A DNA stretch of 64,000 nt, from the sequence record NC_022968.1, one strand, 5' to 3'. Shown piece by piece: positions 31,825-32,213 of the stretch. This DNA is from Escherichia phage 4MG. Position 1 is the stretch's first letter, and each line of letters starts with the position of its first letter. Below the pieces are notes generated by a model. The model saw nothing but the letters and a program-made list of their open reading frames with translations. It was not told where the DNA came from and made no database searches. A program made the position numbers and the translations under genes.

Positions 31825-32213
31825 AAGAATGCTGTTTCCGATCAACAGCCTGGAGGTGTGGTTAGCCATATCTTGTGAGCTAAGGACCTTTGACCCAGGA
31901 TTTAAATAATGAACGAAATCTCAACTTTGTGGTTTAGAAGTTTTAAAGTTAAACGTTAACCTATGAACTTTAACCTTTGAATGTTGAACTTTGAAGTATT
32001 CGAATTCGCGATTCGATAGATTTCGGCAGAGTTGTGGTCTGCGGAAACATACGTTAAGTATCATCACCTATATGATTAAGTTCGAGGCAGTTTAACCTCC
32101 AGCCTCGGCAGAGGCAAGATGTTTCCAACTTCGCTAACCAAAAACAGCATTTAAAAACTTTATCAGTTAACAGTGGGAATTACAAGATGTTTTTCATAAT
32201 TCCCAAAGTTATT

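Follow-up and report, generated by a model that had tools for sequence, protein, structure and literature searches.

A candidate structured noncoding RNA beside PHROG 1491 genes in Escherichia phage 4MG, other large phages and Bacillaceae

What occupies the 389 nucleotides (nt) that separate a protein gene from the tRNA cluster downstream of it in Escherichia phage 4MG? We analyzed a 64,000-nt stretch of this genome (NC_022968.1; hereafter the window), which is from a Seunavirus-like myophage of the Vequintavirinae, and focused on positions 31825-32213. An earlier reading made from the letters alone (the sequence-only reading) had described this segment as a noncoding, AT-rich island with short direct repeats, and had suggested a replication origin, a packaging site or a small-RNA locus. 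We propose that the minus strand from 32151 to 31828 is a structured noncoding RNA gene belonging to a widespread, uncatalogued family linked to PHROG 1491 genes, likely acting as a scaffold or ribonucleoprotein, and we place the probability of this reading at roughly 0.55. The repeats, palindrome and hairpin reported earlier are pieces of this larger element.

A covarying, doubly pseudoknotted fold

The minus strand of the locus has a predicted minimum free energy (MFE) fold of -109.4 kcal/mol (z = -4.97). We aligned 12 homologues from enterobacterial phages (alignment A5) and scored a structure of 50 base pairs against column-shuffled alignments and against the same structure with its partners slid. 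In the alignment 89% of cells are paired, compared with 73.9% after column shuffling and 38-46% with slid partners. More than half of the pairs (29 of 50) change on both sides, and none of 500 shuffles was as good on any of five measures. Covariation and a covariance-model match place the RNA (~324 nt) at 31828..32151, from the 5′ strand of its closing helix, P1, through the 3′ strand of the same helix; this and all features of the RNA described below lie on the minus strand.

P1 joins 32133-32151 to 31828-31846 over 19 bp and contains an exact 10-nt inverted repeat (I8). It is 94% paired in A5, with double changes at 13 of its pairs, and it holds several invariant G-U pairs, which single out the minus strand as that of the RNA. 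Over the family as a whole, the longest helix that joins the two ends runs to a median of 14 contiguous bp versus a shuffled mean of 7.9, and its sequences are unrelated between lineages.

After the 5′ strand of P1, covariation in A5 supports an H-type pseudoknot, PK1 (32083..32114). Its first stem pairs CCUC (32111-32114) with GAGG (32096-32099) and is 100% paired in the alignment, while its second pairs CGAGGC (32102-32107) with GCCUCG (32083-32088) and shows double changes at six of six pairs; the A-rich loop UUAAACU spans 32089-32095. The second stem is the hairpin of the sequence-only reading, whose arms CGAGGC (32083-32088) and GCCTCG (32102-32107) were both found where expected and covary across phages as part of the pseudoknot. 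Pseudoknots of the PK1 topology with different sequence are present in T5, Av-05, AAS21, Vibrio phages, RAY and Lysinibacillus. A strict search for the H-type pattern recovered it from 36 of 89 non-redundant loci (40%) versus 4.5% of shuffles, always 40-100 nt past the stop codon of the upstream gene.

A second pseudoknot, PK2, ties the stretch between P1 and PK1 to the apical loop of a conserved 3′ domain by pairing AUCUUG (32115-32120) with CAAGAU (31870-31875). All of its pairs form in all 12 sequences, including swaps from G-C to A-U and from U-A to G-C. Loop-to-5′-region complements of at least 6 bp that resemble PK2, again with different sequence, occur in 51 of 70 loci (73%) versus 40% of shuffles.

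The 3′ domain itself (31846..31903) is supported by covariation in 37 diverse sequences. It consists of a 5-bp helix of CCUGG (31895-31899) with CCAGG (31849-31853), an inner helix of AGGU (31886-31889) with ACCU (31854-31857), and a hairpin at 31862-31883 whose loop forms PK2. These elements are framed by two junction motifs, AAAUCC (31898-31903) and GGCUG (31846-31850), the latter running into P1; nearly all loci have AAAUCC and, ~53 nt further on, GGCUG. In the 37 sequences, the 5-bp helix has four pairs that always form, and its two central pairs each take four Watson-Crick forms (UA17/AU8/GC6/CG4 and AU13/GC12/UA6/CG5). The hairpin (helix 7) is only 57% paired on A5 and is supported only within clades, a low score attributable to shifts of register between lineages. 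Three further complements were not adopted: the 8-nt pair UGGUUAGC/GCUAACCA (I13) and the pair GCUGGAGGU/ACCUCCAGGCU (I9) are not kept in T5, Av-05 or AAS21 and are thus treated as clade-specific or chance, and the helix CGAAAUCU/AGAUUUCG (I14), which in 4MG would enclose the hairpin P5 and the repeat array described next, was not found in T5 and was left out of the model.

Between PK1 and the 3′ domain, the MFE fold and the alignment place three hairpins, P3 (32060-32076), P4 (32026-32042) and P5 (32000-32016), in a region that differs in length and sequence among lineages. P5 corresponds to the near-palindrome TTCGAATTCGCGATTCGA noted earlier at ~31999-32016, which is confirmed here as a local hairpin of the minus-strand RNA. 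The variable region of the Erwinia phage RAY (positions 2253-2316 of locus L039) carries a permuted tRNA-like insert, which matches the tRNA-like portion of YrlA RNA at 44.5 bits, and that of a marine Neomarinimicrobiota contig from a metagenome-assembled genome (L126, 2198-2271) holds an entire tRNA-Gln (65.6 bits), whose removal by processing would cut the RNA in two. In T5-like phages P4 has a 5-bp stem and a 7-nt loop of CAUUUAA (T5 and L082) or CUCUUAA (L054); the 4MG loop is CCACAAC. The T5-group loops resemble tRNA-Lys anticodon loops, which could be coincidence.

The hairpins are followed by a purine-rich tandem array of ~7-8-nt AAAG-N-U-Y units (31898..31997), which ends in the invariant AAAUCC. 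Arrays comprise about 8-14 units of ~7 nt, and among 42 non-redundant homologues AAAG occurs 184 times versus 48 expected (3.8-fold), with AAAG, TCAA and GTTC enriched 3.8-4.3-fold. The unit drifts by lineage, for example AAGACUC in Salmonella phage SE131 and AGGACUC in L109, and its ~7-nt length is kept. RNAalifold found no conserved pairing within the array. Read on the opposite strand, array units are the three (C/G)AACTTT copies of the sequence-only reading, which we located at 31922, 31965 and 31986 of the plus strand, within 71 bp. Across the whole window this motif is not enriched (27 observed versus 28.3 expected), so that it proves nothing by itself and draws its significance from context only.

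The base composition and coding content of the gap agree with a noncoding element. GC content is 0.35 over 31900-32199 versus ~0.45-0.52 in both flanks, in line with the reported AT-richness, and neither ARAGORN nor the Rfam tRNA model found a match in 31825-32213, as the claim of a segment free of open reading frames (ORFs) and tRNAs had held. The sole ORF of at least 40 amino acids (aa) within the RNA, a 48-codon GTG ORF at 31921..32067, was rejected as coding sequence, as homologous segments differ by non-multiples of 3 and contain at least two stops in every frame.

One partner gene across phages and Bacillaceae

The conservation in close relatives that had been named as a check on the locus is evident, and it extends well beyond them. 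A sensitive blastn search with the 389 bp matched 227 phage records. About 55 of these are Vequintavirinae, aligned over the full length at 82-97% identity; a further ~170, all T5-like siphoviruses (Demerecviridae), match 31838-31997 with ~72% identity across 160 nt. The counterpart in T5 is an unannotated segment (AY543070, 43151-43317) just downstream of T5.085, a PHROG 1491 gene whose product shares only 40% aa identity with the 215-aa protein encoded beside the RNA in 4MG. When a noncoding segment surpasses the adjacent protein gene in conservation between unrelated families of phages, it must be functional in its own right.

The 4MG partner gene (32214..32861, minus strand) encodes an all-helical 215-aa protein that matches PHROG 1491 at E 3.6e-82. 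A tblastn search with this protein matched 743 phage records of very different kinds; further relatives number 412 in IMG/VR and occur on 188 contigs among species-representative bacterial genomes. In a global protein set the family forms 3,243 clusters at 50% identity, all about 205-215 aa. We opened 13 loci, from phage T5, Av-05, Erwinia phage pEp_SNUABM_01, Pseudomonas phage 254, KIL5, Vibrio phage IW18, KIT04, Pantoea phage AAS21, the jumbo phage RAY, Salmonella phage SE131, Bacillus phage JBP901, BM15 and Lactococcus phage WRP3. All 13 share one architecture, with a same-strand unannotated gap of 340-495 nt after the partner gene.

To survey the family further, we built a covariance model (R1) from the 3′ domain alone, with bacterial loci kept out of its construction. 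R1 gave one match each in 93 of 94 phage-derived sources, among them the 64-kb window with a single match (31843-31906, minus strand, 44.6 bits), and matches in 70 of 80 bacterial loci, one of which has two. Every match lies downstream of the partner gene and on its strand, and there is none elsewhere in 635 kb. Among the 70 measured matches in phage sources, 67 begin 190-370 nt past the stop codon, with a few weak ones up to ~830 nt. Several loci missed by R1 also carry the RNA by eye, with variant junction motifs.

In addition to phages, the cassette occupies a syntenic chromosomal position in Lysinibacillus (at least 17 species), the Bacillus pumilus group (at least 8 species) and Brevibacillus. 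Its neighbors there are unrelated housekeeping genes, including a major facilitator superfamily (MFS) transporter, an amino-acid permease and a two-component regulator, and by eye the bacterial copies are preceded by ordinary sigma-A-like elements; promoters of a special sigma factor were considered and set aside. This syntenic position beside ordinary genes argues for a cellular role, one shared with large phages, rather than for a mobile defense island. Plasmid matches are confined to large clostridial, Bacillus and Deinococcus replicons, and the RNA was not found in 5,426 complete E. coli genomes at blastn sensitivity.

The annotation of these loci appears to need correction. Small coding sequences (CDSs) have been placed inside the RNA in FENT2 (CDS0123/0124; L001 3753-3955) and Mydo (CPT_Mydo_194; L002 3383-3517); neither frame nor length is conserved, and they are probably gene-caller artefacts filling the gap. 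The public label "tail fiber protein" for PHROG 1491 is probably wrong as well, because the gene sits among early and tRNA genes, its product has no structural-protein fold, and it is a syntenic chromosomal gene in several Bacillaceae genera. The protein matches no Pfam, NCBIfam or PADLOC family. AlphaFold2 (AF2) models it as a helical bundle (pLDDT 79) whose structural neighbors are all generic, and the best Foldseek matches, all statistically insignificant, include alpha-helical pore-forming toxins. A 203-aa coiled-coil protein of PHROG 9325 is encoded upstream of the partner gene (32937-33548) and is labelled "myosin tail containing" in one record. This gene stands beside the cassette in three annotated Vequintavirinae loci (FENT2, Mydo and pEp_SNUABM_01) and was not seen in the other lineages opened.

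Transcript boundaries, neighboring tRNAs and known RNA families

The 1.3 kb around the locus is 91.8% identical to Enterobacter phage FENT2 and 91% identical to Salmonella phage 41. All genes lie on the minus strand, in the order 215-aa ORF (32861..32214), 389-bp gap, tRNA-Thr (31824..31750) and the remaining cluster of ~25 tRNAs. The position inside a tRNA cluster is therefore as previously described, with tRNA-Thr ending at 31824 and tRNA-Lys and tRNA-Met further upstream on the same strand.

Between the stop codon and the RNA, the MFE fold and the inverted repeat I3 define a hairpin, GGGAAUU…AAUUCCC (32175..32204), whose arms change together in relatives, for example as CAGGAAUU…AAUUCCUG. 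The hairpin overlaps the -35 element of a putative sigma-70-like promoter (32157..32185), TTGTAA-17 nt-TAAAGT, which we read from the sequence and which falls below the threshold of a consensus scan. Vequintavirinae homologues keep TTGTAA or TTGYGA, the 17-nt spacing and TAAAGT, and such a promoter would start transcription at ~32151-32150, on the opening nucleotide of P1. In T5 the RNA begins ~8 nt past the stop codon, and it begins similarly close at many other loci; the T5 arrangement leaves no room for a promoter, which makes co-transcription with the protein gene the general case. The RNA would accordingly be made by read-through from the protein gene and, in 4MG, possibly also from the weak promoter at 32185-32157.

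The other end of the RNA falls at a fixed place. A strict intrinsic terminator follows the R1 match in 30 of 102 representative loci, and most of these terminators begin 13-25 nt after the match, right after P1; the terminator annotated by the depositors of KIL5 lies at exactly the same place after the RNA. Same-strand tRNA genes lie within 100 nt of the match in 19 of the 102 loci, 14 of them beginning 15-24 nt after it. In 4MG, tRNA-Thr(UGU), called by both ARAGORN and the Rfam tRNA model at 31750..31824, begins 4 nt after P1, so that an RNase P cut at the 5′ end of the tRNA would create the 3′ end of the RNA. Intrinsic terminators may thus define the 3′ end in many lineages, and RNase P cleavage at the abutting tRNA may do so in 4MG. 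The adjoining isotypes are diverse (Thr, Cys, Met, Leu, Gln and others), and one specific downstream tRNA was rejected as a partner since isotypes differ between lineages.

Searches against known families place the RNA in none of them. Among 4,227 Rfam families, none matched the RNA in a scan of 27500-35500 at E<=1 or in one of 31815-32215 (401 nt) at E<=10. Over the window and 31 related loci, only the partial YrlA match in RAY and the tRNA-Gln insert in L126 overlap the RNA. We found no published description of the RNA or of its partner protein, in a search that reached few subscription journals, so that a prior report is possible. The locus in the window has all of the features by which we propose to define a PHROG 1491-associated RNA family, namely P1, PK1, PK2, the AAAUCC…GGCUG 3′ domain and a ~7-nt purine-rich array, downstream of a same-strand PHROG 1491 gene.

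Likeness to several known RNAs is nonetheless instructive. As in YrlA, the ends pair in a long closing stem around functional modules, the RAY insert is a permuted tRNA-like structure, and the context in both cases is RNA repair or tRNA. However, the 4MG RNA is three times the length of YrlA, its two pseudoknots and repeat array have no counterpart in Y RNAs, and it is paired with another protein gene. YrlA is defined by adjacency to a Ro60/TROVE gene (PMC4201824); no Ro60/TROVE gene is present among the immediate neighbors that were scanned in the window (PHROG 1491, PHROG 9325 and the tRNAs). The YrlA model (RF02553) has a gathering threshold of 69 bits and gave no match in the window at E<=10, and RAY, the sole family member with any match, reaches 44.5 bits over model positions 23-87 only. 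ARAGORN and Rfam found no tRNA-like domain (T-arm/D-arm mimic) in 31828-32151, such a domain being present only in RAY and L126.

Similarly to transfer-messenger RNA (tmRNA), the element measures ~320-360 nt, has paired ends, a 5′ H-type pseudoknot with an A-rich loop and a looser center, and lies among phage tRNA genes. It differs in having no acceptor/T-arm tRNA-like domain, CCA end or conserved tag frame and in a partner other than SmpB; ARAGORN and Rfam found no tmRNA, and no reading frame is conserved in the homologues. RNase P RNA, 6S RNA, signal recognition particle (SRP) RNA and group I/II introns were likewise unmatched in the two Rfam scans of 27500-35500 (E<=1) and 31815-32215 (E<=10). 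The string AAAUCC…GGCUG-UUNAUCGG presumably resembles the P4/3′ end of E. coli M1 RNA, a likeness unsupported by any score.

The RNA shares with ROOL, GOLLD and OLE a complex, pseudoknotted and strongly covarying structure; phages commonly carry it, often beside tRNA genes, as they do ROOL and GOLLD, and a dedicated neighboring protein gene is a trait in common with OLE. It is smaller (~300-400 nt), with another architecture and obligate synteny with one protein family, and neither these three families nor skipping-rope and other curated phage RNAs overlapped it in the Rfam scan of the window and 31 related loci. In Paenibacillus xylaniclasticus (L128, 2519-2647), a skipping-rope RNA (RF02924, 54 bits, above the gathering score) lies directly after the cassette and not within the RNA. 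The many short purine-rich motif copies, suggesting multivalent binding, recall the CsrB/RsmZ sponges, and one GC-rich family member has CAGGACU units like CsrB repeats. In contrast to CsrB/RsmZ, where hairpin loops present GGA motifs, this RNA repeats AAAG-N-U-Y in tandem, apparently without pairing, inside a rigid pseudoknotted core; moreover, the family occurs in hosts without CsrA, and the Rfam models were unmatched.

Several neighbors of the RNA deserve mention in their own right. A second tRNA-free gap in the 4MG cluster (31367-31669, 303 nt) has no tRNA or Rfam match, and each of its halves is conserved on its own: 31367-31466 is matched at ~77% by rV5/Phapecoctavirus-like E. coli phages, and Klebsiella Vequintavirinae match 31550-31669 at 84-88%; the halves may be further noncoding RNAs or decayed tRNAs. 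The Rfam tRNA model also matches 28179-28257, 29459-29542 and 30428-30498 (45, 50.5 and 27.2 bits), none of them called by ARAGORN, and gives 38 bits to the ARAGORN "tRNA-???" at 30264-30333, which has a two-base anticodon; the true number of tRNAs in the cluster is probably higher than any one tool gives, or some of them are unusual. In T5, the annotated 719-nt "RNAX, stable RNA with unknown functions" (AY543070 40848-41566; L003 198-916) stands beside tRNA-Arg and contains a tRNA-model match (38 bits; L003 782-853); RNAX is unrelated to the PHROG 1491-associated RNA. Just downstream of the T5 copy of that RNA, T5.084 (L003 2095-2412) encodes a cREC_REC domain (PF20274, cyclic-phosphate processing receiver, E 3.4e-15), which hints at an RNA-repair context.

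Competing explanations and biological meaning

Several observations weigh against the reading of the locus as an independent RNA gene with a protein partner. With 8 of 12 consensus positions the putative promoter is weak, and T5 lacks it; we infer the expression, ends and stability of the RNA from sequence. The partner protein is mildly acidic (median pI ~6.0), with no recognized RNA-binding fold and generic helical bundles as its closest structural matches, which together weaken the case for a protein-RNA pairing; binding of the RNA by the co-encoded protein is thus a candidate interaction. The array is apparently single-stranded, as judged from the missing conserved pairing, and the single-sequence MFE fold pairs part of it. 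Finally, the frequent linkage to tRNA genes suggests a role tied to tRNA or translation, which is a contextual argument.

The closeness of the RNA to the stop codon and the rule of co-transcription, together with the invariant gene order and strand and a terminator that follows the RNA and not the protein gene, would also suit a cis-acting 3′ untranslated region (UTR) that protects the mRNA of the protein from 3′ exonucleases or allows autoregulation, with no independent function in trans. We regard this as a live but unlikely alternative, given that a 320-nt double pseudoknot with invariant junction motifs, kept from Gram-negative to Gram-positive lineages, is far more than mRNA protection needs, that the RNA is better conserved than the coding sequence, that some versions contain tRNA or tRNA-like inserts, and that gene and RNA are set apart in Vequintavirinae by a hairpin and a promoter-like element. 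We assign similarly low odds to another live alternative, a decoy or sponge for ribonucleases or RNA-binding factors in phage-host conflict, whose array and tRNA-like or anticodon-loop-like hairpins would take up enzymes that cleave A-rich RNA or tRNA and so shield phage transcripts and tRNAs. A multivalent, apparently single-stranded AAAG array would serve such a role, and the element sits in the tRNA and accessory-gene regions of many large virulent phages, near an RNA ligase in Pseudomonas phage 254, NAD-salvage genes in SE131 and the cREC_REC protein in T5; the tRNA-like inserts, the anticodon-like P4 loops of the T5 group (CAUUUAA, CUCUUAA) and the absence of a copy among the E. coli genomes searched are also compatible with it. 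Set against these are the cassettes of Lysinibacillus, the B. pumilus group and Brevibacillus, at a conserved site with housekeeping neighbors and ordinary sigma-A-like promoters, the lack of any PADLOC match, and an obligate partner protein that a decoy leaves unexplained.

An RNA antitoxin that neutralizes the adjacent protein, as in type III toxin-antitoxin (TA) pairs, appears quite improbable. As with ToxI, a repetitive RNA lies beside a small protein gene in phages and bacteria, as a two-gene cassette with its own terminator, and pore-forming toxins are among the insignificant Foldseek matches. Yet the unit is ~7 nt, not ~35-45 nt (~36 nt for ToxI), the RNA lies downstream rather than upstream of the gene, and the protein is a helical bundle with neither a nuclease fold nor a PADLOC match, in place of a ToxN-type endoribonuclease; vertical, syntenic inheritance within genera is also unlike that of addiction modules. 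Still less probable is that the segment is merely the promoter and leader of the downstream tRNA operon. It does lie directly upstream of tRNA-Thr here, with a promoter-like element, and a same-strand tRNA follows in the 19 loci mentioned above, 14 of them within 24 nt of the R1 match; but a terminator or a protein gene follows instead in T5, most IMG/VR loci and bacterial chromosomes, and the constant partner is the upstream protein gene, not a tRNA, so that this explanation is largely refuted by distribution. We give equally little credence to a DNA element (a replication origin, iteron array or packaging site), for which low GC, short direct repeats and palindromes would speak. Compensatory changes keep RNA helices, many with G-U pairs that would be A-C mismatches on the other strand, the orientation is always that of the upstream gene, with a terminator or tRNA at a fixed distance, the same element stands at unrelated, syntenic sites in Bacillaceae chromosomes, and its motif is unenriched as DNA across the window. 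On these grounds neither the origin nor the packaging site put forward by the sequence-only reading finds support; its third suggestion was right as to an RNA locus, whereas "small" does not describe a ~324-nt, highly structured minus-strand RNA.

We therefore return to a structured RNA gene of the PHROG 1491-linked family, for which the following mechanism can be envisaged. The RNA would be a stable scaffold, in which a doubly knotted, rigid core (P1, PK1 and PK2) encloses the variable hairpins and the apparently unpaired repeat array. By displaying the array, joined in some lineages by a tRNA-like module, the core would present a multivalent platform for binding. The simplest candidate for the ligand is the co-encoded protein, with several copies along the array; otherwise it may be a conserved RNA-binding or RNA-cleaving factor. 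The tRNA genes, tRNA-like inserts, RNA ligase and cREC protein together offer circumstantial indications of tRNA or RNA-repair biology. More tentatively, at odds that we consider slightly short of even, the cassette may represent an ancient RNA-protein module of Bacillota chromosomes and large virulent phages that acts on tRNA, translation or RNA-damage pathways.

The RNA of 4MG can serve well as the type example of a widespread and apparently undescribed family, in which the structured RNA has a dedicated partner gene. More than 740 GenBank phage genomes encode the partner protein, which falls into about 3,200 clusters at 50% identity, and the spread takes in T5, the Vequintavirinae (a kind of phage used therapeutically), phages of Bacillus, Lactococcus, Vibrio and Pseudomonas, and chromosomes from several genera of Bacillaceae. 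If our reading is correct, an RNA class as widespread as many named ones has remained unannotated or been annotated as spurious small ORFs, beside a gene mislabelled "tail fiber", and both that label and the small hypothetical CDSs inside the RNA need correcting. It would also add a new fold, in which two pseudoknots are combined with a repeat array and for which phage T5 and Bacillus are tractable models, and it bears on why large phages carry accessory RNAs in their tRNA regions. Should the module interpretation hold as well, these cassettes would constitute a new class of cellular and viral ribonucleoprotein, of a standing comparable to Y RNA-Ro or OLE-Oap.

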